Below, piece after piece: positions 1 through 30,322 of a stretch of 64,000 bases of DNA. A program made the position numbers and the translations under genes. This DNA comes from Escherichia coli. Lineage in GTDB: Bacteria; Pseudomonadota; Gammaproteobacteria; Enterobacterales; Enterobacteriaceae. Each line of letters opens with the position of its first letter. The first letter of the stretch is position 1. Where the stretch lies: assembly GCF_001677475.2 (NCBI RefSeq), contig NZ_CP015229.1. One strand, given 5' to 3'. The notes under the pieces were generated by a model. The model did not search any database, was not told the DNA's origin, and saw nothing but the letters and a program-made list of their open reading frames with translations.

Positions 1-127
1 CCTTCAGCCGGGGTAAAAAGACATCGGCATTCAACTCCTGTTCTGAAGGGTGAGCGACCACACAGGCTACTTCACAAGTACGGCAGCCAATACAGTCAGC
101 CGGATTAACGATAACTAACGATTTCAT
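1..127 (-). CDS. ygfS: 4Fe-4S ferredoxin-type oxidoreductase subunit, N-terminal part only (gene continues past the left edge)
   Basis: Minus-strand ATG at 127-125 overlaps the ygfT stop (ATGA); translation [22 protein letters not shown] has a CxxCxxC ferredoxin motif; sits downstream of ygfT as in K-12. Confidence 0.6.
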
Positions 128-2046
128 CACGATGCCTTCGTATCAAACAGAGTTAACATATCGCGCGCCGCCTGCCTTCCTGCGGCCATTGCAGTGACAA
201 CCAGATCCGCGCCATGAACTGCATCACCACCAGCAAAGACTTTTTTCAGATGCGTCTGGGTAGGTAAATACCCGACGTCACCGGTTTGAATCAGGCCCCA
301 TTTATCGAGTTTAATTCCGCTGCCCTGCAACCACGGCATGGCATGCGCCTGGAAACCAAAGGCCATAATGAGAACATCGGCGGGCAATTCAAACTCTGAA
401 CCCGCTACCGGACGAGGACGACGGCGACCATCCGGCCCCGGCTCACCCATGGCGGTACGAATCAGGCCCACCGCAGTTAAACGCCCATCTTCGTCACAAG
501 CGATATATTGCGGCTGAACATTGAACTGAAACTCGACACCTTCCTCGCGCGCATTGACCACCTCTTTGCGCGAGCCCGGCATACTGACTTCATCACGACG
601 ATACGCGCAGGTCACGCTGGCGGCATTGAGGCGGATGGAAGTCCGCAAACAATCCATGGTCGTATCGCCACCGCCCAATACCACGACTCGCTTACCTTCC
701 ACATCCGTCAGCGGATACTCTTCAGACTCCGGCAACCCCATGAGCTGGCGGGTATGGGCAGTCAGGAATGGTAGAGCCTGAATGACACCGGGCGCATCTT
801 CATGCGGCAGATCTGCTCGCATCATCCCGTAAGTCCCCACGCCGATGAAAACTGCATCATATTCAGAAGTTAAATCGCTAAAGGCAATATCGCGGCCAAT
901 TTCACAGTTAAGATGAAAGTCGATTCCCATTGCGGTGAATATCTCTCGCCGCTGGCTTAATACCGTTTTATCGAGTTTGAAAGGAGGTATGCCAAAAGTC
1001 AGCATACCGCCAATTTCTGGATGGCGATCAAAGACATCAACCTGAACTCCTGCGCGCGCCAAAATATCAGCACACCCTAACCCTGCAGGCCCTGCGCCAA
1101 TCACCGCCACTTTTTCGATACGGGGAACAACTTTGCTGACATCGGGACGCCAGCCCATCGCCAGCGCGGTATCGGTAATGTAGCGTTCCAGATTCCCGAT
1201 AGAGACTGCGCCAGAGTGATCTTTCAAAGTACATGCGCCTTCACAAAGACGGTCCTGTGGACATACCCTGCCGCAGATTTCTGGCAAGGAACTGGTCTGG
1301 TGGCAAAGTTCTGCCGCTTCAATAATCTTTCCTTCCTGCACCAGACGGATGTAATCCGGAATAGCGTTATGCAGCGGGCAATGCCAGTTGCAGTTAGCTT
1401 TTTCGGCGCAATAAACACAGCGGTCACTCTCATAAGTCGCTTGTTGTGGATCCAGCCCGTAATAGATTTCGCCAAAGTGGGTTTTCCGTTCACTCGCTGA
1501 AATTTTATCTGCGCCTTTACGCGAGTTAACGGGGAGCAACGCTGCACTGCGAGATGGCTGAGCGTCTGATGACGCTTTTCCTGCTGCCGTTTTGCGCTGG
1601 CGGACCACCTTTATCTGTTGCAACCCTTTATCGTCCATCAGCCGTAACGCCTGTGTTGGGCAGACTTCAATACAGGCTTGCGTGCCGGAACTACGCTGGT
1701 TACAAAGGTCGCATTTCTGCGCAATCGTATCGACCATCTCAACGACGCCAAAGGGGCAAGCGATTGCGCATCTTTTACAACCAATACATTTTTGCTCGTC
1801 CAGTTGTACGCTATCGGGCTGGAAAGTCAGAGCATTAACCGGACAAGCCGTAACGCAAGGGGCATTGTTGCAGTGATGGCAGGCCACCGGATTCGCAGCC
1901 TGGCCTTTCCCTACAACGTGGATACGCGGTCGAAAGTCACTGTGACTCAGCGGCCAGTTTTCTTGATTATGTGCCATCGCACAGGCAATTTCACAAGCAT
2001 GACAGCCTATACATTCCGCAGCTTCAGCAGCGATAAACTTATTCAT
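127..2046 (-). CDS. ygfT: fused Fe-S / FAD-NAD(P)-binding oxidoreductase (GltD-like), 639 aa
   Basis: ORF 127..2061; N-terminal Cys clusters and GxGxxG motif ([10 protein letters not shown]); start at MNKFIAAE gives the K-12 length. Confidence 0.85.
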
Positions 2047-2481
2047 TTGCATCCCTTTCATTTAATGAGTTATGTCTTCTCAAATTTCGCGATGCAATAA
2101 ATGGGCATATATTAGGTAGCATGGCCGATTTAATTATAATTTTGCGACTGAGTTCAAATTATTGCCCCTCAATCTGTGCCGCTTTCATTATTTCAACATT
2201 GCCGACCAAAAGAGAGCTAACCAGATAAAAACGATTAAATACGAGAGTGCGACATGCCAGAATGATTAATGAAATATCAATATGAGAAAATTACAGATAA
2301 TTCCATTGTCAGGTTCTCTTCTCATTTTCGTGGTTTAACCACGATTATGTGATTGCCTCCGCAATTCCTGTCTCTAACTCCCCTTCCTCGCAAAAACTGG
2401 CACTCCACGAGCATGTGTTTAGACAGTTTCATTAACGTAAACGGTTGCTTTTTACTCTGGCGAGCGAAAGGAGAAACACTG

Positions 2482-3930
2482 ATGAGCGCCATAGATTCCC
2501 AACTTCCCTCATCTTCAGGGCAAGATCGCCCAACTGATGAGGTTGACCGCATATTATCACCAGGAAAGCTGATCATACTCGGTCTGCAACACGTCCTTGT
2601 CATGTACGCAGGTGCAGTCGCTGTTCCTCTTATGATTGGTGACCGACTGGGCCTCTCAAAAGAAGCTATTGCGATGCTCATTAGCTCGGATCTCTTTTGC
2701 TGCGGGATCGTCACATTATTGCAATGTATCGGTATCGGCCGCTTTATGGGGATCCGCCTGCCGGTGATTATGTCGGTGACCTTCGCCGCTGTAACACCAA
2801 TGATAGCCATTGGGATGAACCCGGATATCGGCCTGCTGGGGATATTCGGTGCCACTATCGCCGCGGGTTTTATCACCACATTATTAGCGCCACTTATCGG
2901 TCGCTTGATGCCTTTATTCCCGCCACTGGTTACCGGTGTGGTTATTACTTCTATCGGACTTAGCATCATTCAGGTGGGTATTGACTGGGCCGCAGGAGGT
3001 AAAGGGAATCCGCAATATGGTAATCCTGTTTATTTAGGTATCTCCTTTGCTGTCTTAATTTTTATCTTGCTCATTACTCGCTATGCGAAAGGATTTATGT
3101 CCAACGTCGCCGTATTACTGGGGATTGTATTTGGCTTTTTACTTTCGTGGATGATGAATGAAGTCAATTTATCCGGGCTACATGATGCTTCATGGTTTGC
3201 GATTGTCACGCCGATGTCATTTGGTATGCCGATTTTCGATCCCGTTTCCATTCTGACCATGACTGCCGTGTTAATCATCGTGTTTATCGAGTCGATGGGG
3301 ATGTTCCTGGCACTGGGTGAAATAGTCGGTCGTAAACTCTCTTCACACGATATTATTCGCGGGTTGCGTGTCGATGGCGTAGGGACAATGATAGGCGGAA
3401 CGTTTAACAGCTTCCCCCACACGTCATTTTCTCAAAACGTTGGCCTGGTTAGCGTGACGCGCGTTCATAGCCGCTGGGTGTGTATTTCTTCGGGAATTAT
3501 ATTAATCCTGTTTGGCATGGTGCCAAAAATGGCGGTGCTGGTCGCCTCCATTCCGCAATTTGTGCTGGGCGGTGCTGGGCTGGTGATGTTCGGCATGGTA
3601 CTGGCGACAGGGATTCGAATTCTGTCGCGCTGTAACTACACCACCAACCGTTACAACCTCTATATTGTGGCGATCAGTCTCGGCGTTGGCATGACTCCGA
3701 CGCTCTCTCACGATTTCTTTTCTAAGTTACCGGCCGTACTGCAACCGTTGCTGCATAGCGGCATTATGCTCGCAACCCTTAGCGCCGTTGTGCTGAACGT
3801 CTTCTTTAATGGCTATCAGCATCATGCTGATCTGGTGAAGGAATCCGTCTCTGATAAAGATTTAAAAGTCAGGACAGTACGTATGTGGCTTCTGATGCGC
3901 AAGCTGAAGAAAAATGAGCATGGAGAATAA
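2482..3930 (+). CDS. uacT: NCS2-family uric acid/xanthine permease, 482 aa
   Basis: ORF 2353..3930; start chosen at ATG 2482 with AGGAG 9 nt upstream; polytopic membrane protein; position between ygfT and idi. Confidence 0.85.
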   Translation: MSAIDSQLPSSSGQDRPTDEVDRILSPGKLIILGLQHVLVMYAGAVAVPLMIGDRLGLSKEAIAMLISSDLFCCGIVTLLQCIGIGRFMGIRLPVIMSVTFAAVTPMIAIGMNPDIGLLGIFGATIAAGFITTLLAPLIGRLMPLFPPLVTGVVITSIGLSIIQVGIDWAAGGKGNPQYGNPVYLGISFAVLIFILLITRYAKGFMSNVAVLLGIVFGFLLSWMMNEVNLSGLHDASWFAIVTPMSFGMPIFDPVSILTMTAVLIIVFIESMGMFLALGEIVGRKLSSHDIIRGLRVDGVGTMIGGTFNSFPHTSFSQNVGLVSVTRVHSRWVCISSGIILILFGMVPKMAVLVASIPQFVLGGAGLVMFGMVLATGIRILSRCNYTTNRYNLYIVAISLGVGMTPTLSHDFFSKLPAVLQPLLHSGIMLATLSAVVLNVFFNGYQHHADLVKESVSDKDLKVRTVRMWLLMRKLKKNEHGE

Positions 3931-3931
3931 T

Positions 3932-4057
3932 ATGAATCTTTTAATGCGCGCTATATTCAGTCTGTTGTTGCTTTTTACTCTCTCTATTCCTGTCATTTCT
4001 GACTGTGTTGCAATGGCCATTGAAAGTCGCTTCAAATATATGATGCTGCTTTTTTAA
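3932..4057 (+). CDS. candidate small hydrophobic protein, 41 aa (MNLLMRAIFSLLLLFTLSIPVISDCVAMAIESRFKYMMLLF)
   Basis: ATG 2 nt after the uacT stop with GGAG 6 nt upstream; single predicted TM helix; too short for the ORF track; not validated. Confidence 0.25.
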   Translation: MNLLMRAIFSLLLLFTLSIPVISDCVAMAIESRFKYMMLLF

Positions 4058-4178
4058 ATGGTTTTACCTGTCGACATCCGCTCAAAACGGGCGGTTGTCG
4101 ATAAACGCTCACTTGGTTAATCATTTCACTCTTCAATTATCTATAATGATGAGTGATCAGAATTACATGTGAGAAATT

Positions 4179-4727
4179 ATGCAAACGGAACACGTCATTT
4201 TATTGAATGCACAGGGAGTTCCCACGGGTACGCTGGAAAAGTATGCCGCACACACGGCAGACACTCTCTTACATCTCGCGTTCTCCAGTTGGCTGTTTAA
4301 TGCCAAAGGACAATTATTAGTTACCCGCCGCGCTCTGAGCAAAAAAGCATGGCCTGGCGTGTGGACTAACTCGGTTTGTGGGCACCCACAACTGGGAGAA
4401 AGCAACGAAGACGCGGTGATCCGCCGTTGCCGTTATGAGCTTGGCGTGGAAATTACGCCTCCTGAATCTATCTATCCTGACTTTCGCTATCGCGCCACCG
4501 ATCCGAATGGCATTGTGGAAAATGAAGTGTGTCCGGTATTTGCCGCACGCACGACCAGTGCATTACAGATCAACGATGATGAAGTGATGGATTATCAATG
4601 GTGTGATTTAGCAGATGTATTACACGGTATTGATGCCACACCGTGGGCGTTCAGTCCGTGGATGGTGATGCAGGCAGCCAATAGTGAAGCAAGAAAATTG
4701 TTGTCTGCTTTCGCGCAGCACAATTAA
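4179..4727 (+). CDS. idi: isopentenyl-diphosphate delta-isomerase, 182 aa
   Basis: ORF 4179..4727; Nudix-type IPP isomerase sequence; convergent with lysS. Confidence 0.9.
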
Positions 4728-4752
4728 AAAACCCCGACATTTGCCGGGGTTG
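4726..4752. terminator. bidirectional intrinsic terminator between convergent idi and lysS
   Basis: Stem CCCCG/CGGGG (4732-4749) flanked by an A-run upstream, which is a T-run on the lysS strand. Confidence 0.6.
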
Positions 4753-4769
4753 TGAGCATAACGTAATGC

Positions 4770-6287
4770 TTATTTTACCGGACGCATCGCCGGGAACAGA
4801 ATAACGTCGCGGATGGTATGGCTGTTGGTGAACAGCATTACCATACGGTCGATACCAATTCCCAGACCTGCTGTCGGCGGTAAGCCGTGTTCCAGTGCGG
4901 TGACATAATCTTCGTCGTAGAACATCGCTTCGTCGTCACCTGCATCTTTCGCGGCAACCTGATCCAGGAAGCGCTGCGCCTGATCTTCCGCGTCATTCAG
5001 CTCGCTAAAGCCGTTACCGATTTCACGACCACCGATAAAGAACTCAAAGCGGTCTGTGATTTCCGGGTTAACGTCGTTACGACGCGCCAGCGGAGAAACT
5101 TCTGCCGGATATTCAGTAATGAAGGTCGGCTGGATCAGATGTGCTTCTGCCACTTCTTCGAAGATCTCGGTAACGATACGGCCCAGACCCCAGCTCTTCT
5201 CAACGTGGATGCCGATAGATTCAGCAATCGCTTTCGCAGAGTCGAAGTTGTCCAGATCTGCCATGTCGGTTTCCGGGCGATATTTCTTGATCGCTTCACG
5301 CATGGTCAGTTTTTCGAACGGTTTACCGAAGTCCAGCGTTACGTCGCCGTAGGTCACTTCCGTCTTACCGAGAATATCCTGTGCCAGAGTACGGAACAGC
5401 GATTCGGTCAGCTCGATCAGATCTTTGTAATCTGCGTAAGCCATATAGAGTTCCATCATGGTGAACTCTGGGTTATGACGTACGGAAATACCTTCGTTAC
5501 GGAAGTTACGGTTGATTTCGAATACACGCTCGAAGCCACCGACCACCAGACGCTTGAGGTACAGTTCCGGCGCGATACGCAGGTACATGTCGAGATCCAG
5601 CGCATTATGGTGGGTGATGAACGGACGCGCAGCCGCACCGCCTGGGATCACCTGCATCATCGGCGTTTCAACTTCCATAAAGCCGCGATTCACCATGAAC
5701 TGGCGAATGCCAGAGAGGATCTGCGAGCGCACTTTAAAGGTGTTGCGGGATTCATCGTTAGAGATGAGATCCAGATAACGCTGACGATAGCGCGCTTCCT
5801 GGTCCTGCAAGCCGTGGAATTTGTCCGGCAGCGGACGCAGTGCTTTGGTCAGCAGACGCAGCTCGGTGCAGTGGATAGACAGTTCGCCAGTTTTGGTTTT
5901 GAACAGTTTACCTTTCGCGCCGAGGATGTCGCCGAGGTCCCATTTTTTGAACTGCTCGTTGTAAACGCCTTCCGGCAGATCGTCACGGGCAACGTACAGC
6001 TGAATGCGGCCCCCCACGTCCTGCAGGGTAACGAAAGACGCTTTACCCATAATACGACGGGTCATCATGCGGCCGGCAACGGCGACTTCGATGTTCAGCG
6101 CTTCCAGTTCTTCGTTCTCTTTACCGTCGAATTCTGCGTGCAATTGGTCAGAGGTATGATCGCGACGGAAATCGTTCGGGAAGGCAATCCCCTGCTCGCG
6201 CAGGTTCGCCAGCTTCTCACGACGCGTTTTCAGTTCATTGTTAAGATCGACTACCGCGTCAGCGCCCTGTGCGTGTTGTTCAGACAT
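4770..6287 (-). CDS. lysS: lysyl-tRNA synthetase (constitutive), 505 aa
   Basis: ORF 4770..6287; class II aaRS; immediately downstream of prfB as in the prfB-lysS operon. Confidence 0.95.
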
Positions 6288-6296
6288 GTTGGTTCC

Positions 6297-7395
6297 TCAT
6301 AACCCTGCTTTCAAACTTGCTTCGATAAATTGATCCAGGCTGCCGTCCAGCACGGCCTGCGTGTTACGGGTTTCTACCCCGGTACGCAGATCTTTAATGC
6401 GGGAGTCATCAAGGACATAAGAACGAATCTGGCTGCCCCAGCCGATGTCGGATTTGTTATCTTCCATCGCCTGCTTCTCGGCATTTTTCTTCTGCATCTC
6501 CAGTTCATAAAGCTTCGCTTTCATCTGCTTCATGGCCTGGTCTTTGTTCTTGTGCTGGGAACGGTCGTTCTGGCACTGGGTCACGATCCCAGTTGGGATG
6601 TGAGTAATACGCACCGCAGATTCGGTACGGTTAACGTGCTGACCGCCCGCGCCGGACGCGCGATAAACGTCAATGCGCAGATCCGCCGGGTTGATTTCGA
6701 TATCAATATCATCATCAACTTCCGGGTAAACAAACGCAGAGCTGAACGACGTGTGGCGACGACCGCCGGAGTCAAACGGGCTCTTACGCACCAGGCGGTG
6801 AACGCCAGTTTCTGTACGCAGCCAGCCGTAAGCGTAATCGCCGGAGATTTTGATCGTCACGGATTTAATACCCGCCACTTCACCTTCCGACTCTTCGATG
6901 ATTTCAGTTTTGAAACCACGCGATTCTGCCCAGCGCAGATACATACGCTCAAGCATGCTCGCCCAGTCCTGTGCTTCCGTACCGCCAGACCCCGCCTGAA
7001 TATCGAGGTAGCAGTCGGCGCTGTCATATTCGCCAGAGAACATACGGCGGAACTCAAGCTGCGCCAGTTTTTCTTCCAGGGCGTCGAGTTCAGCAACGGC
7101 TTCGTTAAAGGTTTCTTCGTCGTCAGCTTCTACAGCCAGTTCCAGCAGACCAGAAACATCTTCCAGCCCCTGTTTCATTTGGTCGAGGGTGTCGACAACG
7201 GCTTCGAGGGAGGAACGCTCTTTACCCAGCGCCTGTGCGCGTTCGGGTTCGTTCCAGACATCCGGCTGTTCCAGCTCGGCGTTTACTTCTTCCAGACGCT
7301 CTTTCTTGGCGTCGTAGTCAAAGATACCCCCTAAGAACGTCGGAGCGTTCCGTGAGGTCCTGAATGCGATTATTTACCGGATTAATTTCAAACAT
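6297..7395 (-). CDS. prfB: peptide chain release factor 2, made by programmed +1 frameshift (365 aa)
   Basis: Frame 0 is ATG 7395..7393 through Leu25 (7324..7322) then in-frame TGA (7320..7318); the +1 frame continues 7319..6297 and matches ORF 6297..7178. Site reads CTT AGG GGG TAT CTT TGA C with the internal SD AGGGGG. Confidence 0.95.
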
Positions 7396-7485
7396 GGTCT
7401 GATTTCTTTTATTGAGCTAGTCAAAATGCGGTGATAAGAGCGGGATTGTACCCAATCCACGCTCTTTTTTATAGAGAAGATGACG

Positions 7486-9219
7486 CTAAATTGGCCAGAT
7501 ATTGTCGATGATAATTTGCAGGCTGCGGTTGCCGCGAAACTCGTTAATATCGAGCTTGTAAGCCAGTTGTACTTCGCGCACGCCGTTATCCGGCCAGAGG
7601 GCGGTATCGACATTAAAAGCAATACCATCCAGCAGCGGACCGCCGCCGACCGGTTCGACCATCACCTTCAAATGACGTTCGCCCACCAGCCGCTGTTGCA
7701 GCAGACGGAAATGACCGTCAAACAGCGGCTCCGGGAACATCTGCCCCCACGGGCCAGCATCGCGCAGCAGCTGAGCCACTTCCATGGTCATTTCGGCCGG
7801 GCTTAACGGACCGTCTGACACTACTTCGCCTTGCAATAGCGAAGGGTCCAGCCACTCAGAAACCAGTTCGCCAAACCGTTGTTGAAAGAGTTCGAATTTA
7901 TCCTCTTCCAGCGACAAACCCGCCGCCATCGCATGACCGCCAAACTTGAGCATCATGCCGGGGTAGAGTGTGTCTAATCGCTCCAGCGCATCACGCATAT
8001 GCAGCCCCTGAATCGAGCGACCGGAACCTTTCAGCGTACCGTCACCTGCTGGCGCAAAGGCGATAACCGGACGGTGAAAACGCTCTTTGATGCGCGAAGC
8101 CAGAATACCGACAACGCCCTGATGCCATTCGGGGTGATACATTGCCAGCCCGCCGGGTAGCGTGTCACGGCTGCGCTCCAGTTTCTCGCACAGGGTCAGG
8201 GCTTCAATCTGCATTCCTTGTTCGATCTCTTTTCGCGTCTGGTTTAGCGCATCGAGTTCATTTGCCAGCACGCGCGCTTCGCCGATGTTGTCGCAGAGCA
8301 ACAGCGCCACACCGACGGACATATCATCCAGTCGCCCGGCAGCATTGAGACGTGGCCCCAGCGCAAAACCTAAATCGCTGGCGGCGAGTTTTTGTGCATC
8401 ACGGTTTGCCACTTCAAGCAGAGCTTTAATCCCTGGACGGCACTTTCCGGCACGGATGCGACTCATCCCCTGCCAGGTCAGAATGCGATTATTAGCGTCC
8501 AGCGGCACGACGTCCGCTACTGTCCCCAGCGCGACCAGATCCAGCAGTTCTGCCAGGTTAGGAATTGCGATGCCATGCTCATCAAACCAGCCCTGATCAC
8601 GCAAAAAGGTGCGCAGCGCCAGCATCAGATAAAACGCCACACCCACGCCTGCCAGTGATTTCGACGGGAAATTACAGTCGCGCAAGTTAGGGTTAATGAT
8701 CGCTTCCGCTGCGGGTAATGTGTCGCCCGGCAAATGGTGATCGGTAACAATAACCGGAATGCCCAACGAGCGAGCGTGTTCAACCCCCGCATGGGAGGAA
8801 ATTCCGTTATCCACCGTGACAATTAACTGCGCGCCACGGGCATGGGCCTGATCGACCACTTCCGGGCTTAAGCCGTAACCGTCTTCGAAACGGTTTGGAA
8901 CCAGGTAGTCGATATTGCTGCAACCAAGCGAGCGCATCGCCAGCACGCTTAGAGCCGTACTGGTGGCACCGTCTGCGTCGAAATCACCGACCACAATAAT
9001 CCGCGTTCCTTCGCGAAAAGCGTTGTAAAGGATCTCAACGGCCTTTTCGACGCCGCTCAGTTGCTGCCAGGGCAGCATACCTTTAACACTGCGTTCCAGT
9101 TCTTGCGCACTGCGTACTCCCCGGCTGGCGTATAAACGGCGCAGCAAGGGAGGCAATTCAGCGGGCAAGTCTGCCGTTTCATCGACTTCACGGCGACGAA
9201 GTTGTATCTGTTGTTTCAC
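7486..9219 (-). CDS. recJ: single-strand-specific 5'-3' DNA exonuclease RecJ, 577 aa
   Basis: ORF 7486..9219; DHH phosphoesterase motifs (VVGDFDADG, DHH); xerD-dsbC-recJ order. Confidence 0.95.
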   Translation of the reverse strand: MKQQIQLRRREVDETADLPAELPPLLRRLYASRGVRSAQELERSVKGMLPWQQLSGVEKAVEILYNAFREGTRIIVVGDFDADGATSTALSVLAMRSLGCSNIDYLVPNRFEDGYGLSPEVVDQAHARGAQLIVTVDNGISSHAGVEHARSLGIPVIVTDHHLPGDTLPAAEAIINPNLRDCNFPSKSLAGVGVAFYLMLALRTFLRDQGWFDEHGIAIPNLAELLDLVALGTVADVVPLDANNRILTWQGMSRIRAGKCRPGIKALLEVANRDAQKLAASDLGFALGPRLNAAGRLDDMSVGVALLLCDNIGEARVLANELDALNQTRKEIEQGMQIEALTLCEKLERSRDTLPGGLAMYHPEWHQGVVGILASRIKERFHRPVIAFAPAGDGTLKGSGRSIQGLHMRDALERLDTLYPGMMLKFGGHAMAAGLSLEEDKFELFQQRFGELVSEWLDPSLLQGEVVSDGPLSPAEMTMEVAQLLRDAGPWGQMFPEPLFDGHFRLLQQRLVGERHLKVMVEPVGGGPLLDGIAFNVDTALWPDNGVREVQLAYKLDINEFRGNRSLQIIIDNIWPI

Positions 9220-9224
9220 GCGAA

Positions 9225-9935
9225 TTATTTACCGCTGGTCATTTTTTGGTGTTCGTCGAGGAATTCTTTCATGTCTTTCGGTGGCTGGTAACCCGGAACA
9301 AGTGTGCCATTGCTCAGCACAATTGCCGGTGTGCCGCTAACGCCAAGCTGGACGCCAAGTGCGTAATGATCGGCAATATCGATATCGCAACTTGCCGGAG
9401 TGGCAGCTTTACCTGCCATCACATCATCAAACGCTTTGTTTTTATCTTTCGCACACCAGATAGCTTTCATTTCTTTCTCTGCATCGCTGTCCAGCCCCTG
9501 GCGCGGGAAAGCAAGATAACGCACGGTGATCCCCAGCGCGTTGTAGTCTGCCATTTGCTCATGCAGTTTGTGGCAGTAACCACAGGTAATATCAGTAAAC
9601 ACGGTGATGACGTGTTTTTCCTGCGGCGCTTTATAAACGATCATCTCTTTTTCAAGCGCATTCAACTGCTTTAACAGCATCTTATTGGTGACATTGACCG
9701 GAGCCGTGCCACTAACGTCATACATTGGCCCCTGAATGATATGTTTACCATCATCGGTGATGTACAACACACCGCTGTTAGTCAGAACTGTCTTCATGCC
9801 AGCTACAGGCGCGGGCTGAATATCGCTGCTTTTGATGCCCATTTTGGCTAACGTTTGTTGAATTGCCGCGTCATCAGCCTGAGCAAAGCCTGAAAACGCC
9901 GCTAACAAAGTAAACAACATAAAACCTTTCTTCAT
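9225..9935 (-). CDS. dsbC: periplasmic disulfide isomerase DsbC, 236 aa
   Basis: ORF 9225..9935; signal peptide and CGYC active site. Confidence 0.95.
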   Translation of the reverse strand: MKKGFMLFTLLAAFSGFAQADDAAIQQTLAKMGIKSSDIQPAPVAGMKTVLTNSGVLYITDDGKHIIQGPMYDVSGTAPVNVTNKMLLKQLNALEKEMIVYKAPQEKHVITVFTDITCGYCHKLHEQMADYNALGITVRYLAFPRQGLDSDAEKEMKAIWCAKDKNKAFDDVMAGKAATPASCDIDIADHYALGVQLGVSGTPAIVLSNGTLVPGYQPPKDMKEFLDEHQKMTSGK

Positions 9936-9959
9936 AAATCTTCCCGTTCTTTTCAGACA

Positions 9960-10856
9960 TCACGCCCGCGGGTGATGCTGTTGATGAAGTTGCCGCAGAC
10001 GCTCGGTAGCGACATGCGTATAAATTTGCGTGGTGGAGAGATCGCTGTGGCCCAGTAGCATCTGCACCACGCGTAAATCCGCACCATGATTTAATAAATG
10101 AGTGGCAAAAGCGTGACGCAACACATGCGGTGACAGCTTTTCGCTGTCGATACCCGCCAGCACGGCATAATGTTTAATGCGGTGCCAGAAGGTTTGTCGC
10201 GTCATCTGCTGCGCACGCTGGCTGGGGAACAACACATCAATAGAGACACCGTTCAACAACCACGGTCGCCCATGCTCGAGATACGTTTCCAGCCAGTAAA
10301 CCGCCTCTTCACCTAACGGTACCAGGCGCTCTTTGTTGCCTTTACCAATGACCCGCACTACGCCCTGACGCAGGCTGATATCACTCATTGTCAGTCCGAC
10401 CAGTTCAGAGACACGCAGCCCGGTAGCATACAACACTTCAAGCATGGCTTTATCGCGTAGCTCCAGTGGCTGATCAATTAATGGTGCCTGTAATAAACGT
10501 TCAACCTGCGCTTCGCTTAAATCTTTTGGCAAACGCTGGGGCAATTTCGGTGAAGCGAGATGCGCACTGGGATCGTCTTCACGAAACTTTTCGCGATAAA
10601 GATACTGGAACAATCGGCGCACTGCACTCAGCAAACGCGCTGAGCTGGTGGCTTTATACCCGCCCTCCAGCCGTTCTGCCAGTAATGCCTGCAAATCGTC
10701 ACTTTGCGCAGTCGCCAGCGTCAACCCGCGGTGATGCAACCACTCCACCATCATTGACAGATCGCGACGGTATGCGTTCAACGTATTTTCAGCCAGATTT
10801 TTTTCCAGCCACAGAGCATCAAGAAACTGCTCGATGCGTGCCAGATCCTGTTTCAC
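9960..10856 (-). CDS. xerD: site-specific tyrosine recombinase XerD, 298 aa
   Basis: ORF 9960..10856; tyrosine recombinase C-terminal motifs (HxLRH...Y); core gene, not an integrase of a mobile element. Confidence 0.95.
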   Translation of the reverse strand: MKQDLARIEQFLDALWLEKNLAENTLNAYRRDLSMMVEWLHHRGLTLATAQSDDLQALLAERLEGGYKATSSARLLSAVRRLFQYLYREKFREDDPSAHLASPKLPQRLPKDLSEAQVERLLQAPLIDQPLELRDKAMLEVLYATGLRVSELVGLTMSDISLRQGVVRVIGKGNKERLVPLGEEAVYWLETYLEHGRPWLLNGVSIDVLFPSQRAQQMTRQTFWHRIKHYAVLAGIDSEKLSPHVLRHAFATHLLNHGADLRVVQMLLGHSDLSTTQIYTHVATERLRQLHQQHHPRA

Positions 10857-10967
10857 TTGCGCCCCTTATGGTCACTCATTTGATCCATTATGCCTTATTG
10901 TGCCGTGACTAAAGCGATTCTGATACACTAGCCGCAAAAGCCACAGCAGAATCGAGAAGCTTACGTT

Positions 10968-11489
10968 ATGAATATGGGTCTTTTTTACGGTTCCAGCACC
11001 TGTTACACCGAAATGGCGGCAGAAAAAATCCGCGATATTATCGGCCCAGAACTGGTGACCTTACATAACCTCAAGGACGACTCCCCGAAATTAATGGAGC
11101 AGTACGATGTGCTCATTCTGGGTATCCCGACCTGGGATTTTGGCGAAATCCAGGAAGACTGGGAAGCCATCTGGGATCAGCTCGACGACCTGAACCTCGA
11201 AGGTAAAATTGTTGCGCTGTATGGGCTTGGCGATCAACTGGGATACGGCGAGTGGTTCCTCGATGCGCTCGGTATGCTGCATGACAAGCTCTCGACCAAA
11301 GGCGTGAAGTTCGTCGGCTACTGGCCAACGGAAGGATATGAGTTTACCAGCCCGAAACCGGTGATTGCTGACGGGCAACTGTTCGTGGGCCTGGCGCTGG
11401 ACGAAACTAATCAGTATGACCTTAGCGACGAGCGTATTCAGAACTGGTGCGAGCAAATCCTCAACGAAATGGCAGAGCATTACGCCTGA
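10968..11489 (+). CDS. fldB: flavodoxin 2, 173 aa
   Basis: ORF 10968..11489; flavodoxin fold sequence; divergent from xerD. Confidence 0.9.
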
Positions 11490-11528
11490 TGTCACTGACG
11501 GCTTAGCGCATATGCTTTGCCGTCATCT

Positions 11529-12195
<667 letters not shown>

Positions 12196-12425
12196 TCACG
12201 AAAATCCAGTACCCGGCTATTGTAACGTGTTTTTCGACTTCTTTTACGGGAATATCAGTAAACACAATCGCGATCGCGAAATTAATTCACAACAATTCAA
12301 GAGCTTCATTTTTTTGGAAGTCGCCTCGCAGAAGGCACAGATCGCGTAGTGAAAGCACTTGCATTGCCTCATAGCTCTTTTACCATTAGTTATTAATACG
12401 CCGTTAAGCAACTCAGGACTCTATT

Positions 12426-13406
12426 ATGGCTTTTACACCTTTTCCTCCCCGTCAGCCTACGGCTTCTGCCCGTTTACCGCTGACGCTGATGACGCTTGAT
12501 GACTGGGCGCTTGCCACCATTACTGGCGCGGACAGCGAAAAATATATGCAGGGTCAGGTGACAGCAGATGTCAGCCAGATGACAGAAAATCAGCATCTGC
12601 TCGCCGCCCATTGCGACGCCAAAGGTAAAATGTGGAGCAATTTACGTCTGTTCCGCGACGGCGATGGCTTTGCATGGATTGAACGGCGCAGCGTGCGTGA
12701 ACCGCAGCTGACTGAACTGAAAAAATATGCGGTGTTCTCTAAAGTGACCATCGCGCCAGACGACGAGCGTGTGCTGCTTGGTGTTGCCGGTTTTCAGGCG
12801 CGCGCCGCGCTGGCCAATCTCTTTAGTGAACTGCCTTCGAAAGAAAAACAGGTAGTTAAAGAAGGCGCGACCACTTTGCTATGGTTTGAACACCCGGCAG
12901 AACGTTTCCTGATCGTAACCGATGAAGCTACTGCCAATATGCTGACCGATAAACTGCGCGGTGAAGCGGAACTGAACAATAGCCAACAGTGGCTGGCATT
13001 AAACATTGAAGCGGGTTTCCCGGTGATTGATGCCGCGAACAGCGGGCAGTTTATCCCACAGGCGACCAATCTCCAGGCGCTGGGCGGTATCAGCTTTAAG
13101 AAAGGCTGTTATACCGGACAAGAGATGGTGGCGCGAGCAAAATTCCGTGGTGCCAATAAACGTGCGCTCTGGTTGCTGGCAGGTAGTGCCAGCCGACTGC
13201 CGGAAGCTGGTGAAGATTTAGAGCTGAAAATGGGCGAGAACTGGCGTCGCACCGGTACGGTGCTGGCTGCGGTAAAACTGGAAGATGGTCAGGTCGTGGT
13301 ACAGGTCGTCATGAATAACGATATGGAACCGGACAGCATCTTCCGCGTGCGTGACGATGCGAATACATTGCATATCGAGCCGCTGCCGTATTCGCTCGAA
13401 GAGTAA
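12426..13406 (+). CDS. ygfZ: folate-binding Fe-S cluster repair/tRNA modification protein YgfZ, 326 aa
   Basis: ORF 12426..13406; GcvT-like fold sequence with KGCYTGQE motif. Confidence 0.9.
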
Positions 13407-13413
13407 ATCTCTG

Positions 13414-13448
13414 TGTCGCATCAGGCATTTATCGCCTGATGCGACACG
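13414..13448. terminator. long perfect hairpin between convergent ygfZ and yqfA
   Basis: GTGTCGCATCAGGC / GCCTGATGCGACAC, 14-bp perfect stem with a 7-nt loop; arms contain the REP-like GCCTGATGCG motif. Confidence 0.6.
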
Positions 13449-13482
13449 GGTGTGTCTTTTCAGGCCTACAAAGGCACACCCA

Positions 13483-14145
<663 letters not shown>

Positions 14146-14305
14146 TTACTCCGGAGAAACGTACACGCACATGTATACCTCTCCAGCGTAACTGAGAATA
14201 GTTCCAGTGAACACCTGTTAGCTAAAATAAATTCTGATTTGAGACTAATCTCCGAAAAATCAGGAAATTAAATGCGAAATTTCAACTAACAGGCGTGAGT
14301 TCAAT

Positions 14306-14617
14306 TTAAAGGCATTTAAATTCAATCACATAAAACTGTGTCTGGCCGGGATAGATATCGGCAATGACCTTTTTCAGATCAGTCAGGGGCATATTTTCCT
14401 GCTCTGCATGTTTTTCCGTCAGTGTATCCAGCGTTACGGTTGAGGTTGCGGTGACTTCAATCGTGCAAAAATAACCGTCATCTTCAAAACGTCCGACACG
14501 AAGCACATCACCCGTTTTGAAGTGCGATTCAGACTCGTCGCGGATGGTGATGGTTTTACGCCCAGCCAGAATGTCATCCTGGAAACGTTGAAAAAAAGTG
14601 ATGTCGTTTGGCTGCAT
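14306..14617 (-). CDS. yqfB: ASCH-domain protein YqfB, 103 aa
   Basis: ORF 14306..14617; matches the K-12 length and position, divergent from bglA. Confidence 0.85.
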
Positions 14618-14634
14618 GGTACTATTTCCTGTAA

Positions 14635-16095
<1,461 letters not shown>

Positions 16096-16106
16096 GTAGA
16101 TGAAGT

Positions 16107-16139
16107 ACCGGATGCAATGCTTGTTGCGTTGCATCCGGT
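16107..16139. terminator. hairpin between convergent bglA and ygfF
   Basis: ACCGGATGCAA ... TTGCATCCGGT, 11-bp stem. Confidence 0.55.
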
Positions 16140-16156
16140 CAGACAACTTTCCTGCT

Positions 16157-16900
16157 TTATTTCCCGCCCGCCAAATCGATAAAACTTCCCGTGACATAAG
16201 AGGCTTTATCACTAAGCAGCCAGACAATGGCCTGCGCGACCTCTTCCGCCTGTCCGCCGCGCTGCATGGGGATGTTCGACTTAACGCGATCGACGCGTCC
16301 GGGTTCACCACCGCTGGCATGCATTTCGGTATAAATAAACCCAGGCCGCACGCCGTTAACGCGAATGCCCTGCGCGGCGACTTCCAGCGATAATCCGGTG
16401 GTTAACGTATCAATCGCCCCTTTCGATGCCGCATAATCAACGTATTCTCCGGGTGATCCCAGCCTGGCTGCTACCGAAGAAACATTGACGATAGCGCCGC
16501 CACTGCCGCCGTTTTTCAGCGCCATGCGTTTTACCGCCTCGCGGCAGCAGAGAAAATAACCCGTCACGTTGGTGGAAAGTACTTGGTTGATTCGCTCTGC
16601 CGTGAGATTTTCCACTGTGCATTGGGTAAACAATATTCCTGCGTTATTGACCAGCGCGGCTAACGGTTCATCACGCTGATCGATTGCTGTAAACATTGCG
16701 ATAACCTGATTTTCGTCGCTGATATCCGCCTGGAGCACAAATGCCTTGCCACCGGCTTGCGTTATTAAGTTCACCACTTCCTGCGCCGCGTGGAGGTTTT
16801 GCTGATAATTAACCGCCACCGTATACCCTTCTTTTACCAGCAGCAGCGCAGTTGCCCGCCCAATGCCGCGACTACCACCGGTCACAAGTGCTATAGCCAT
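16157..16900 (-). CDS. ygfF: short-chain dehydrogenase/reductase, 247 aa
   Basis: ORF 16157..16900; TGGSRGIG Rossmann motif and YAASK catalytic motif. Confidence 0.9.
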   Translation of the reverse strand: MAIALVTGGSRGIGRATALLLVKEGYTVAVNYQQNLHAAQEVVNLITQAGGKAFVLQADISDENQVIAMFTAIDQRDEPLAALVNNAGILFTQCTVENLTAERINQVLSTNVTGYFLCCREAVKRMALKNGGSGGAIVNVSSVAARLGSPGEYVDYAASKGAIDTLTTGLSLEVAAQGIRVNGVRPGFIYTEMHASGGEPGRVDRVKSNIPMQRGGQAEEVAQAIVWLLSDKASYVTGSFIDLAGGK

Positions 16901-16916
16901 TTGTTTTCCCCAAAAA

Positions 16917-17106
16917 TAAAGGCGCCGAAGCGCCTTTCAAATTGATGACAAAGTGCGTTTTTATGCCGGATGCGGCGTGAACGCCTTATCCAGCCTACAA
17001 GATCGTGCAAATTCAATACATTGCAGAGACCATGTAGGCCTGATAAACGAAGTGCATCAGGCAATGTTGAGTTTGTCATCAGCCTCAAAGGCGCCGAAGC
17101 GCCTTT
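16917..17106. repeat. REP pair (BIME/RIP-like): two inverted REP units with a linker, bracketed by duplicated hairpin AAAGGCGCCGAAGCGCCTTT
   Basis: REP unit TGCCGGATGCGGCGTGAACGCCTTATCCAGCCTAC (about 16964-16998) and inverted unit TGCCTGATGCACTTCGTTTATCAGGCCTAC (about 17033-17064); identical 20-bp hairpins at 16918-16937 and 17087-17106. Confidence 0.8.
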
Positions 17107-17128
17107 AGAAGATAGTCGAATCAGTAAA

Positions 17129-20002
17129 TTACTGGTATTCGCTAATCGGTACGCAGGAGCAGAACAGGTTACGGTCGCCGTAAACATCATCCAGACGTTT
17201 CACTGTTGGCCAGTATTTGTCTGCCACGCCTGCCGGGAATACTGCAACGTCACGGCTGTACGGATGCGCCCACTCGGCGACCAGTTCGCTCTGAATGTGC
17301 GGCGCGTTCACCAGCGGGTTATCTTCCAGCGGCCAGACACCAGCTTTCACCTGTTCAATTTCTGCGCGGATAGCCAGCATAGCGTCGATAAAGCGATCCA
17401 GTTCCACTTTGCTTTCAGATTCAGTCGGTTCAACCATCAGCGTACCCGCCACCGGGAACGACATCGTCGGCGCGTGGAAACCGTAGTCGATCAGGCGCTT
17501 GGCAATATCCAGCTCGCTGATGCCGGTTTCTTCTTTCAGCGGGCGAATATCGAGAATACATTCGTGCGCCACGCGACCGTCGCGACCGGTATACAGCACC
17601 GGGAAGGCATCCTGCAGGCGGCTGGCAATATAGTTGGCGTTAAGAATTGCCACCTGGCTTGCTTTTTTCAGCCCTTCTGCGCCCATCATGCGGATGTACA
17701 TCCAGCTGATTGGCAGAATGGATGCGCTACCGAACGGTGCCGCAGAAACCGCGCCCTGACGGGTTAACATGCCTTCGATTTGCACCACGCTATGACCCGG
17801 TACAAACGGTGCCAGATGCGCTTTCACACCGATCGGTCCCATACCCGGACCACCACCGCCGTGCGGAATGCAGAAAGTTTTATGCAGGTTAAGGTGCGAA
17901 ACATCCGCGCCAATAAAGCCCGGCGAAGTGATACCAACCTGAGCGTTCATGTTCGCGCCATCAAGGTAAACCTGACCACCGAACTGATGCACGACTTCAC
18001 ACACCTCACGGATCGTTTCTTCATACACGCCGTGGGTGGAAGGATAGGTCACCATGATACAGGAGAGGTTATCGCCCGCCTGTTCCGCTTTCGCGCGCAG
18101 ATCAGTCAGATCGATGTTGCCGTTTTTATCACACGCCACAACCACCACCTGCATTCCTGCCATATGTGCAGAAGCGGGGTTAGTTCCGTGCGCAGAAGCC
18201 GGGATCAGGCAGATATCGCGATGCCCTTCGTTGCGGCTTTCATGATAATGACGAATCGCCAGCAGGCCCGCATATTCGCCCTGTGCGCCAGAGTTCGGCT
18301 GCATACAAACGGCGTCGTAACCGGTCAGTTTCACCAGCCAGTCAGCCAACTGCGCAATCATCTGCTGATAACCTTCGGCCTGTTCCGGCGGGCAGAACGG
18401 GTGCAGTTCGGCAAATTCCGGCCAGGTGATTGGGATCATCTCGGCGGCGGCGTTCAGTTTCATGGTGCAGGAACCCAGCGGGATCATCGCCTGATTCAGC
18501 GCCAGATCTTTACGCTCCAGCGAGTGCATATAGCGCATCATTTCGGTTTCGCTGTGGTAGCGATTAAACACCGGATGAGTGAGGATTTCGTCGTCGCGCA
18601 GCATCGCAGGCTGAATAGAGCGGCTGTCGTGAGCCACGTCTTTGTCCAGCGTGTCGATCTCCAGCCCGTGGTTATCGCCCAGCAGCACGCTGAAAAGCTG
18701 CATCACGTTTTCACGCGTGGTGGTTTCATCAAGGGTGATCCCAACCGCGTTCAGGATATCGCTACGCAGGTTGATTTCAGCCGCTTCGGCACGCGTCAGT
18801 ACGCCCGCTTTGTCGGCCACTTCCACACACAAGGTGTCGAAATAGTGCGCATGACGCAGTTTCAGACCTTTTTGTTGCAGGCCCGCCGCCAGGATATCGG
18901 TCAGACGGTGGATGCGGTTAGCGATACGTTTCAGGCCCACCGGGCCGTGATAAACGGCATACAGGCTGGCGATGTTTGCCAGCAGTACCTGGGAAGTACA
19001 AATGTTGGAGTTCGCTTTCTCACGGCGAATATGTTGCTCGCGAGTCTGCATCGCCATGCGCAGCGCGGTATTGCCAGCTGCATCTTTCGATACACCGATA
19101 ATACGGCCCGGCATTGAGCGTTTGTATTCATCTTTCGCCGCAAAGAATGCCGCGTGTGGGCCTCCGTAGCCCATCGGCACGCCGAAACGTTGCGCCGAAC
19201 CAAAGACAATATCCGCGCCCTGTTTACCCGGCGCAGTTAACAGCACCAGCGCCATAATATCGGCGGCAACGCTGACCACGATTTTGCGTGATTTCAGTTC
19301 GCTGATAAGCGCAGTATAGTCGTGGATTTCACCGGTAGTGCCGACCTGCTGTAACAGCACGCCGAAGACGTCCTGATGATCGAGCACTTTTTGCGCGTCA
19401 TCGACAATCACTTCAAAACCAAAGGTTTCGGCACGAGTACGGACCACATCCAGCGTTTGCGGATGCACATCGGAAGCCACGAAGAAGCGGTTGGCATTTT
19501 TCAGTTTGCTGACGCGTTTCGCCATCGCCATTGCTTCGGCGGCAGCAGTGGCTTCGTCAAGAAGAGAAGCCGATGCCATATCCAGCCCGGTTAAATCCAG
19601 CGTTACCTGCTGGAAGTTGAGCAGTGCTTCAAGGCGGCCCTGGGAGACTTCAGGTTGATACGGAGTATACGCGGTATACCAGCCCGGATTTTCCAGCATG
19701 TTACGCAGGATAACCGGCGGTAACTGCACGGCGGTGTACCCCATGCCGATGTAAGACGTGAAGCGTTTATTGCGACTGGCAATAGCCTTGAGTTCTGCCA
19801 GTGCGGCGTATTCGGTCGCCGGTGCGCCAACCTGCGGCGGAGTCGCAAGCTGAATATCTTTCGGCACAATCTGGCCGGTCAGCGCGTTTAACGATTGTGC
19901 GCCAACGGCATTCAGCATTTCTTGCTGTTGCGCGGCGTCCGGTCCGATATGGCGTTCAATAAAAGCGCCGCTGTTTTCAAGCTGGCTTAACGTCTGTGTC
20001 AT
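17129..20002 (-). CDS. gcvP: glycine dehydrogenase (decarboxylating), glycine cleavage P protein, 957 aa
   Basis: ORF 17129..20086; start at [11 protein letters not shown] (ATG 20002..20000) gives the K-12 length. Confidence 0.95.
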
Positions 20003-20120
20003 GAGCGATGGTTCCTGAAACGTGCAGTGAATTGTGAACCTCTCTCCTTGCGAAGAGAGTGAGGGTGAGGCGTAAAAGTTCCTCACCCTGATCCTCTCCC
20101 GCAGAAGAGGAATAAAGCCG

Positions 20121-20510
20121 TTACTCGTCTTCTAACAATGCTTCGTATGCGGTCGCATCCAGCAGTGATTCCAGTTCGCTTTCATCGCTGGCTTTGATTT
20201 TGAAAATCCAGCCGCCTGCATACGGTTCGCTGTTCACCAGTTCCGGGGAATCGCTCAGTGCGTCGTTTACCGCCACGATTTCACCGCTTACTGGCGCATA
20301 AATGTCTGACGCCGCTTTTACTGATTCGGCAACCGCGCAGTCATCGCCCGCGCTAACCGTTGCGCCCACTTCCGGCAGGTCAACAAACACCATATCGCCT
20401 AACAGCTCCTGGGCATGTTCGGTGATACCAACGGTGTAAGTGCCGTCGGCTTCTTTACGCAGCCATTCGTGTTCTTTGCTGTATTTCAGTTCTGCTGGTA
20501 CGTTGCTCAT
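20121..20510 (-). CDS. gcvH: glycine cleavage system H protein (lipoyl carrier), 129 aa
   Basis: ORF 20121..20513; lipoyl-lysine motif ESVKAAS. Confidence 0.95.
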
Positions 20511-20533
20511 CAATCAATCTCCAAAAAAGTAAA

Positions 20534-21628
20534 TCACGCGACGGCTTTACCGTTACGCACAAAAACAGGTTTCGTCACTTTAACCGGCATTTCACGGTTG
20601 CGAATTTGCACAATCGCTGTTTCACCAATACCTTCCGGCACGCGCGCCAGCGCAATGCTGTAACCCAGCGTCGGGGAGAAAGTACCGCTGGTGATAATGC
20701 CTTCATGCTGGTTGCCCTGCGCATCGGTAAAGCGTACCGGCAGTTCATTACGCAGCACGCCTTTTTCGGTCATCACCAGACCAACCAGTTTTTCTGTGCC
20801 ATGCTCACGCTGCACTTCCAGGGCTTCACGACCGATAAAGTCACGATCTGCCGGTTCCCAGGCGATAGTCCAGCCCATGTTGGCGGCTAACGGAGAAATG
20901 GTTTCGTCCATCTCCTGACCATAAAGATTCATACCCGCTTCCAGACGCAGCGTGTCACGCGCGCCCAGGCCGCATGGCTTAACGCCCGCTTCCACCAGCG
21001 CACGCCAGAAATCGGCCGCTTTTTCATTGGGCAGCGCAATTTCATAGCCCGCTTCACCGGTATAACCAGTGGTGGCAATAAACAGATCGCCCGCCTGCAC
21101 GCCAAAGAACGGTTTCATCCCTTCCACCGCCTGACGCTGGGCGTCATTAAACAGTGTGGCAGCTTTTGCCTGCGCATTCGGCCCTTGTACGGCAATCATG
21201 GAAAGGTCATCACGAACGGTAATTTCGATGCCGAAAGGTTCAGCGTGTTGGGTGATCCAGGAGAGGTCTTTTTCGCGGGTGGCGGAGTTAACAACGAGGC
21301 GGAAGAAATCTTCAGTAAAATAGTAGACGATGAGATCATCTATCACACCGCCAGAGGCATTCAACATCCCCGAGTAAAGGGCTTTGCCGCTTTTGGTGAG
21401 TTTCGCCACATCGTTCGCCAGCAGATAACGCAGAAACTCCCGGGTGCGGCTGCCGCGGAGATCGACGATGGTCATATGTGACACATCAAACATTCCGGCA
21501 TCGGTACGTACCGCATGATGTTCGTCGATTTGCGAACCGTAATGCAGCGGCATCATCCAGCCGTGGAAATCCACCATGCGAGCGCCGCAAAGCGTGTGTT
21601 GTTCGTACAAAGGAGTCTGTTGTGCCAT
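20534..21628 (-). CDS. gcvT: aminomethyltransferase, glycine cleavage T protein, 364 aa
   Basis: ORF 20534..21628; first gene of gcvTHP. Confidence 0.95.
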
Positions 21629-21990
21629 CTTGTCCTCATTGAATAAGCGGGGCTGACAACTTTTTCATGGCGAAATTATCACCACGAAACCCAGCATCGG
21701 GGCCACTCCCGGTCCCCAACGCAATCGTTCTCTTTTGTCTGAACTTACCACCGAAACAGACTGTTAACCATAAGGTAAAATTGATCATCACATTAGCTTA
21801 TGGTTAAAAAACGCCAAAATCGCAACAGAATAAAAAACCAAAAAACACACCAGTTTCTATACAAAGATGATGCTATTAGAAAGTTAATTTGAATAAGGCA
21901 ATATTAAGAACTGAAAAAATGTCAAAAAATACTAAATCAAAAAATCATGGCATTAGAAAATATAATGCGAAAACGGAGGTGAAATTAGTT
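21629..21990 (-). promoter_or_regulatory. gcvTHP promoter and upstream control region
   Basis: About 450 bp of AT-rich non-coding DNA upstream of gcvT; in K-12 this region holds the gcvT promoter and the GcvA/Lrp/PurR sites. Individual sites not mapped here. Confidence 0.5.
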
Positions 21991-22000
21991 TATTTCAAAT

Positions 22001-22032
22001 GAGGAAAATCTCCCGGCGAAAAAACCGGGAGA
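22001..22032 (-). terminator. intrinsic terminator downstream of ubiI (end of pepP-ubiH-ubiI unit)
   Basis: Perfect 8-bp stem TCTCCCGG/CCGGGAGA with 8-nt loop, followed on the minus strand by TTTTCCTC. Confidence 0.7.
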
Positions 22033-22075
22033 TGAAAGTGTGATGGGTATCAAATAAACAACAGAGGAAAAATTT

Positions 22076-23278: not shown

Positions 23279-23300
23279 TGTTTATTCCTTAAAACCGCCT

Positions 23301-25801: not shown

Positions 25802-25826
25802 AACACTCTCCTTACGTTTTTTGTTT

Positions 25827-26405
25827 TTAGTGTAGAGTCGGTTTTTGTACTTCTGGCGCGGTCGGTTGCGGATGAGTAAAGGTGTCGTGGCATAACAGCG
25901 CGGCAACACGAACGTATTCGATGATCTCTTCAAGCGACATTTCAAGCTCTTCCTGATCTTCGTCTTCGTCGTAGCCCAGCTGCGCGATGTTACGCAGATC
26001 GTCGATAGCTTCACCGGTTTCTCCGGTCACTTTGTCCAGCTTCGGTTGCGTAACGCCAAGACCAAGCAGGAAGTGATTGACCCAACCTGCCAGCGCATCA
26101 GCCCGATCGAAAACGCTGACATCATCGCCATCAGGCAGATAAAGCTGAAAAAGGAAGCCGTCATCCTGCAGGGCATCGCTGGTGGCAGAGTGCATTTTGC
26201 GCAGTGCCTGTGCCAGCTCATGACCGAAAGCCATGCCTTCGTTCGTCAGGTCGTGAAGTAGCGGCAGCCATGAGCTGTCATCGTTACCGCCACATATCAT
26301 CCCGCTGATTAAACCATGCATCTCAGCAGGGGTCAGACCCGTCCCTTGTTGGTTCAGATACTGGTTCATTTCGTTGTAACCAGGCATTTCGTTCTGTATA
26401 GACAT
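25827..26405 (-). CDS. ygfB: UPF0149 family protein YgfB, 192 aa
   Basis: ORF 25827..26411; start at MSIQNEM chosen for the K-12 length. Confidence 0.8.
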
Positions 26406-26506
26406 AAGCATTCGTCGTCAAAGGGAGGAATATTCATGATATGCTACCACTTTGGGCCCTGGTGGACCAGAAAAGGGCTTGTCTCTTCTCATCAGGGTAG
26501 CTATAG

Positions 26507-26902
<396 letters not shown>

Positions 26903-26943
26903 CACTTTTCGGTTTACTGTGGTAGAGTAACCGTGAAGACAAA

Positions 26944-27127
26944 ATTTCTCTGAGATGTTCGCAAGCGGGCCAGTCCCCTGAGCCGATATTTCATACCACA
27001 AGAATGTGGCGCTCCGCGGTTGGTGAGCATGCTCGGTCCGTCCGAGAAGCCTTAAAACTGCGACGACACATTCACCTTGAACCAAGGGTTCAAGGGTTAC
27101 AGCCTGCGGCGGCATCTCGGAGATTCC
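26944..27127 (+). ncRNA. ssrS: 6S RNA
   Basis: Matches the E. coli 6S RNA as I remember it from ATTTCTCTGAGATGTTCGCAAGCGGGCCAGTCCCC to GGCATCTCGGAGATTCC; ends approximate to a few nt. Confidence 0.9.
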
Positions 27128-27201
27128 CTTCTTATCTGGCACCAGCCATGACGCAACTACCAGAACTCCCACTGACATTATCCCGACAAGAAATCCGCAA
27201 A

Positions 27202-27750: not shown

Positions 27751-27810
27751 GGGCGACACACCTGCATCGCCCTGATTGACATCGTTGATTCTTTAACCTA
27801 ATTTAGTGAG

Positions 27811-28117: not shown

Positions 28118-28138
28118 TTGATTGTCAGAGAAGGGGAA

Positions 28139-30286: not shown

Positions 30287-30322
30287 GATCGTTTCGCCTG
30301 TGGTATGAAATTTCACACGCAT

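Follow-up and report, generated by a model that had tools for sequence, protein, structure and literature searches.

The gene prfB lies at 7395..6297 on the minus strand of the window, i.e., of the whole 64,000-nucleotide stretch of DNA analyzed here, where it is intact and codes for RF2 (peptide chain release factor 2). We conclude, with a probability of about 98%, that expression of this intact RF2 gene requires the classic programmed +1 frameshift at codon 25/26. Full-length RF2 can be reached only through a +1 shift, and the frame under selection is frame 0 before the site and the +1 frame after it.

Layout and sequence of the frameshift site

The coding sequence is split between two reading frames, which meet at a compact set of sequence elements:

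7395..7321, minus strand: prfB frame 0, comprising ATG and 24 further sense codons (RF2 residues 1-25, as aligned to solved E. coli RF2)
7332..7327, minus strand: internal Shine-Dalgarno (SD)-like AGGGGG, three nucleotides 5′ of the slippery CUU
7326..7324, minus strand: spacer codon TAT/UAU (Tyr24), read from the sequence
7323..7320, minus strand: slippery CUU U, consisting of CTT (7323..7321) and the T at 7320, which is the skipped base
7320..7318, minus strand: in-frame, RF2-specific stop TGA/UGA, codon 26 of frame 0
7317, minus strand: C after the UGA, shared with the first +1 codon, GAC (7319..7317), as its third base
7319..6297, minus strand: prfB +1 frame, comprising 340 sense codons (RF2 residues 26-365) and the TGA at 6299..6297

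On the minus strand, the sequence around the site reads exactly CTT AGG GGG TAT CTT TGA C, and frame 0 ends after 25 codons at the TGA at 7320..7318, just as a preliminary description of this DNA had claimed. Its placement of AGGGGG three nucleotides before the slippery CUU U (7332..7327, with the spacer at 7326..7324) is confirmed, as is its +1 frame of 340 codons running to 6297 (from GAC at 7319..7317 to TGA at 6299..6297). The join that it suggested needs one correction. The second segment, 7319..6297, stands, but the first was given as 7395..7322 and should end at 7321, because the suggested segments add up to 1,097 nucleotides and are out of frame. The in-frame join is 7395..7321 plus 7319..6297 on the minus strand, which comprises 1,098 nucleotides and encodes 365 amino acids plus the stop.

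Every sequence element of the prfB cassette is found at the site: a UGA at codon 26 that is followed by C, a CUU U that overlaps this stop, and an AGGGGG that is separated from CUU by exactly 3 nucleotides. When CUU occupies the P site, the spacer codon UAU is in the E site, and UGA-C is a weak termination context (PMC12421855). In the 64-kb window, a search that tolerates up to two mismatches still finds the 16-mer AGGGGGTATCTTTGAC a single time (0.03 occurrences expected). The AGGGGGU tract also forms the strongest predicted duplex with the anti-SD sequence in the prfB mRNA (−11.7 kcal/mol versus a mean of −2.2 kcal/mol, SD of 2.2). For this prediction, we took the anti-SD sequence to be the canonical tail of E. 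coli 16S rRNA, as the window contains no rRNA gene. A tRNA scan of the 64-kb window detected zero tRNA genes, and hence none for the slipping tRNA-Leu.

Instead of changing frame, the ribosome might pass the UGA in frame, either by suppression or by insertion of selenocysteine. UGA-C is a leaky stop context, which speaks for such readthrough. However, frame 0 past the UGA encodes an arginine-rich sequence that is unlike RF2 and reaches its next stop at codon 58 (7224..7222), and across prfB frame 0 contains 25 stops. Moreover, an Rfam scan of the whole window placed no family, SECIS or otherwise, over the frameshift site, and the 141-nucleotide fold around the site has a z-score of −0.74, i.e., no stimulatory structure. 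We regard the chance that readthrough operates here as negligible. The lack of an outstanding structure at the site is expected of a frameshifting mechanism built from linear elements alone; as such a cassette needs no structured RNA, the absence of an Rfam family is uninformative about the frameshift itself.

A frame restored in the RNA, through transcriptional slippage on the T-run rather than by the ribosome, is just as hard to credit. The site does contain a short homopolymer (TTT), but three Ts are far below the run lengths that are known to support RNA polymerase slippage. Additionally, the site combines a conserved SD-like element, a fixed 3-nucleotide spacer, and a stop specific to RF2, all of which belong to a mechanism that acts in translation.

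Identity of the joined product

The product of the +1 frameshift carries the domains and motifs that are expected of RF2, since the PCRF and RF-1 domains and the GGQ and SPF motifs are all present:

7304..6738, minus strand: PCRF domain (Pfam PF03462), residues 31-219
6782..6774, minus strand: SPF tripeptide, the stop-codon recognition motif of RF2, residues 205-207
6713..6384, minus strand: RF-1 domain (Pfam PF00472), residues 228-337
6659..6657, minus strand: codon of Ala246, located by alignment to solved RF2
6647..6639, minus strand: GGQ, the peptidyl-tRNA hydrolysis motif, residues 250-252

The preliminary description had proposed, as a check, an alignment of the joined translation to RF2, with a failure across the junction to count against its reading. 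In our alignment to solved E. coli RF2 chains, the joined translation covers residues 1-365 (E about 1e−240) and passes the junction without a gap (..LRGYL is followed directly by DYDAK..). It is identical to the chain in PDB entry 1gqe at 364 of 365 residues, the sole difference being residue 298 (Leu here, Val in 1gqe). Against the RF2 of E. coli K-12 in 1ml5 and other entries, 364 of 365 residues are again identical, with residue 246 as the sole difference (Ala here, Thr in K-12). The product scores 525.9 bits with TIGR00020, the curated prfB model, whose cutoff is 370, and is thereby assigned to the RF2 family. Models of RF1 give 304 to 306 bits, which is under their cutoffs of 400 to 423.

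Ala at residue 246 is the canonical, or “B-type,” state of RF2, whereas Thr at this residue is peculiar to E. coli K-12. The presence of Ala246 indicates that the source of the window is not a K-12 derivative. The RF2 of the window should be the more active form, given its Ala246 (PMC5373646).

The same region could also be read as encoding two separate products without any frameshift, namely, a leader peptide of 25 amino acids and an N-truncated RF2 of 293 amino acids that starts at ATG 7178. This ATG is indeed the first start codon of the +1 frame. Yet codons 26-72 (7319..7179), which contain no start codon, align residue for residue with solved RF2 and show the third-position variability of the +1 frame (49 sequences), and the PCRF domain starts at residue 31, upstream of Met73. 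Furthermore, from its upstream stop (7376..7374) up to ATG 7178, the +1 frame lacks any ATG, GTG, or TTG, and, therefore, residues 26-72 cannot come from independent initiation. We consider separate initiation very unlikely and the programmed frameshift to be the source of these residues.

Conservation of the site within E. coli

The 1.4-kb prfB region has a match of at least 95% identity in 5,425 of the 5,426 complete RefSeq E. coli genomes, with one match per genome. The conservation of the frameshift site was counted on the same base (5,425/5,426 complete E. coli genomes at ≥95% identity). For a 60-nucleotide query with the site at its center, the identity is ≥99% in 4,410 E. coli genomes and 95 to 99% in the other 1,015. 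The slippery CUU U is invariant across six aligned Escherichia sequences. Both variants recovered near the site are silent: CTC/CTA at 7354, upstream, is in the third position of a frame-0 codon, and TAC/TAT at 7314, downstream, is in the third position of a +1 codon.

Relative to E. coli alleles, prfB of the window carries about 1% silent differences. In comparison with one E. coli allele (L002), prfB has 11 differences, every one of them at the third position of a +1 codon. If differences were uniformly distributed over codon positions, the probability of such a placement would be, by our arithmetic, about (1/3)^11, or roughly 6e−6.

In every E. coli record inspected, RefSeq/PGAP annotates the orthologue as a two-piece coding sequence with the remark “programmed frameshift” (WP_001701073.1). 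Together with the RF2 alignment of the joined product and its TIGR00020 score, this annotation supports the earlier interpretation of the site as the classic RF2 autoregulatory frameshift.

Conservation of the site beyond E. coli

An exact match to the 19-mer CTTAGGGGGTATCTTTGAC was found at at least 120 loci in at least 120 species in a scan of 100,044 species genomes; by our rough estimate, about 2 matches would be expected by chance in this 298-Gb genome collection. Among the matches listed, the carriers of the 19-mer are mostly Gammaproteobacteria, with some Betaproteobacteria. Two metagenome-assembled genomes that are labelled Eremiobacterota and Deltaproteobacteria (L086 and L098) also carry the exact 19-mer cassette, which could be due to either binning contamination or true conservation.

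Flanking sequences allowed a test of the gene layout at 100 loci among the matches listed. All 100 of these loci are prfB genes with the same two-frame layout and a +1 frame of 340 to 349 codons, and in 80 of them the first open reading frame (ORF0) has 24 or 25 codons. The joined products from all 100 testable loci among the matches listed align across the junction through residue 365, with 59 to 99.7% identity to the RF2 of the window. The GGQ motif is present in 100/100 and the SPF motif in 99/100 of the orthologues tested among the matches listed.

To locate the selected reading frame, we used per-site entropies in a gap-free stack of 49 sequences. Upstream of the motif, the entropy peaks at position 3 of frame 0 (1.64 bits versus 0.95 and 0.64 bits at the other positions). 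Downstream, the peak is at position 3 of the +1 frame (1.54 bits versus 0.77 and 0.56 bits). This switch of phase indicates that the selected reading frame moves by +1 exactly at the site. As a comparative signal, the frame switch speaks independently against both a pseudogene and a sequencing error.

A pseudogene or mis-sequenced prfB, in which the interruption is a true frameshift mutation or an indel introduced by sequencing or assembly, would explain why a naive list of open reading frames gives just a 25-amino-acid and a 293-amino-acid ORF here, as a broken gene would. Against this explanation, the same interruption and motif occur in six aligned Escherichia sequences and at 100/100 testable loci of other species among the matches listed, and the 60 nucleotides around the site are matched in 5,425/5,426 complete E. 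coli genomes at ≥95% identity. Each frame is also under purifying selection on its own side of the site, and RF2 is an essential factor. We judge a broken or mis-sequenced gene to be exceedingly unlikely, and the conservation of the site already effectively refutes it. The statement in the preliminary description that prfB must not be called a pseudogene is, thus, borne out by the site conservation and by the purifying selection on both frames.

On the evidence presented above, all four alternatives to the programmed frameshift, i.e., a pseudogene, initiation at ATG 7178, UGA readthrough, and transcriptional slippage, were rejected, and none of our results speaks against the programmed frameshift.

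For annotation, which is where the value of the finding lies, the appropriate entry for the gene is join(7395..7321, 7319..6297), minus strand, with the product RF2 and the note “programmed frameshift.” Annotations as a pseudogene or as a 25-amino-acid ORF plus a truncated 293-amino-acid ORF should be avoided. The locus is also a convenient positive control for recoding-site detectors applied to this genome.

Genes and elements next to prfB

The order of genes around prfB is that of E. coli, xerD-dsbC-recJ-prfB-lysS; in the E. coli records inspected, idi comes next. The following features flank the gene:

7466..7436, minus strand: stable, interrupted hairpin of 13 bp in the 90-nucleotide recJ-prfB spacer (z = −3.0)
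6287..4770, minus strand: lysS (lysine--tRNA ligase, 505 amino acids, class II lysyl-tRNA synthetase domains), the downstream partner of prfB
4751..4730, minus strand: intrinsic-terminator-like hairpin and T-run after lysS, from the promoter/terminator consensus scan

The start of lysS is located 9 nucleotides past the prfB stop, and the SD sequence of lysS (GAGGA) overlaps that stop codon. In the recJ-prfB spacer, a consensus scan found no sigma-70-like promoter. The inner stem of the spacer hairpin also scores as terminator-like on the plus strand in the consensus scan, and the hairpin may be a terminator or attenuator of recJ, or a processing site.

Opposite prfB, an antisense ORF of 334 amino acids (6330..7334, plus strand) has no Pfam match and most probably represents a shadow ORF of prfB, whose frame is strongly codon-biased.

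Other features of the window

The E. coli region ygfT-prfB-gcv-ssrS-pgk/fbaA-tkt-speA is collinear with the whole window (1..64000). Even the best match among the 5,426 complete RefSeq E. coli genomes has an identity of just 97.2 to 98.4% to the window, with the differences evenly spread, and the identity to the type strain of E. albertii is 92.5% over 8.7 kb. Judged from these sequence identities, the window looks like DNA of a divergent Escherichia lineage, possibly of a cryptic clade, rather than of mainstream E. coli.

The stretch from 50001 to 64000, which contains tkt, speA, cmtA, yggP, and a gene for a DUF1266 protein, is covered to at least 80% in just 1,853 of the 5,425 E. coli genomes. 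This low coverage indicates that the stretch includes a variably present segment.

On the plus strand, gathering-level Rfam matches place 6S/SsrS RNA at 26944..27127 and a Sib antitoxin small RNA at 27776..27926. Also at the gathering level, two copies of a short element, ES036 (CssrF), are located at 16999..17041 and 41147..41189 on the plus strand. The scan gave no other Rfam hits in the window. E. albertii DNA adjoining prfB has short matches of 82 to 85% identity near 16959..17088 and 41102..41216 of the window, and these matches suggest a REP/BIME-type repeat that is dispersed among intergenic regions.

Proposed mechanism of RF2 autoregulation

The mechanism described here, including the ribosomal nature of the shift, the roles of the SD-like element, the E site, and the P site and the autoregulation of RF2 level, is drawn by analogy from published work on the identical E. 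coli cassette. As not a single base of the cassette differs, the functional steps of this mechanism can be carried over to the window. In the published summary, abundant RF2 ends translation at the premature UGA, while scarce RF2 leads to a pause on the weak UGA-C; the SD-like tract then forms a duplex with the anti-SD sequence and displaces the E-site tRNA, and a slip from CUU to UUU yields full-length RF2 (PMC12421855).

Applied to the window, ribosomes would start at ATG 7395, read 25 codons, and pause when the P site contains tRNA-Leu on CUU (7323..7321) and the A site contains UGA-C, a poor stop. When RF2 is abundant, the UGA would be recognized and a 25-residue peptide released. When RF2 is scarce, the pause would persist, and AGGGGG(U), three nucleotides upstream, would pair with the 3′ tail of 16S rRNA, a pairing that is reported to destabilize the E-site tRNA. 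The P-site tRNA-Leu would then slip from CUU to UUU, making GAC (7319..7317) the new A-site codon, and 340 further codons would be read to give the 365-amino-acid RF2. The outcome would be a negative feedback loop on the level of RF2.

Experiments on the identical sequence of E. coli have demonstrated both frameshifting and its fall as RF2 activity rises (PMC12421855, PMC5373646). Ribosome profiling puts frameshifting at the native locus of K-12 at about 28%, and at about 21% when RF2 is of the more active “B-type,” with Ala246 (PMC5373646). A premature stop in prfB is present in 64% of 12,753 genomes, where near-invariance or hyper-conservation is reported for AGGGGG, the 3-nucleotide spacer, CTTT, TGA, and the C after it, and TAG is never used (PMC12421855).

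In a divergent lineage, the combination of an unchanged cassette, an Ala246 RF2, and a possibly different usage of UGA might shift the set-point of frameshifting relative to K-12, although we think this unlikely. Such a shift, if true, would be a quantitative nuance and would involve no new mechanism.

Comparison with known frameshifting systems

The closest known system is the +1 frameshift of E. coli prfB (Craigen & Caskey, Weiss et al., reviewed in PMC12421855), whose cassette is identical and is likewise located at codon 25/26. The E. coli system also shares with the window an ORF0 of 25 codons, a +1 frame of 340 codons, a product of 365 amino acids, and the recJ-prfB-lysS context. Compared with K-12 prfB in particular, the cassette shows no difference, but the RF2 of the window has Ala246 and that of K-12 has Thr246 (PMC5373646).

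The prfB sites of other bacteria share the SD-like AGGGGG, the 3-nucleotide spacer, CTTT, TGA, and the following C (PMC12421855). In other lineages, the spacer codon varies and a few sites use TTTTTGA, neither of which applies to the window. Actinomycetota and Mycoplasmatota are without the prfB frameshift motif (PMC12421855).

The feature described here is, hence, the textbook prfB +1 frameshift, which is already known and will not surprise specialists. Among more distant systems, eukaryotic antizyme and the yeast elements Ty1 and Ty3 likewise shift by +1 where the A-site codon is slow to be decoded, and use this shift as a sensor. They differ from prfB in that their stimulators are of other kinds and involve no SD:anti-SD pairing, and in that their effectors are polyamines or rare tRNAs.
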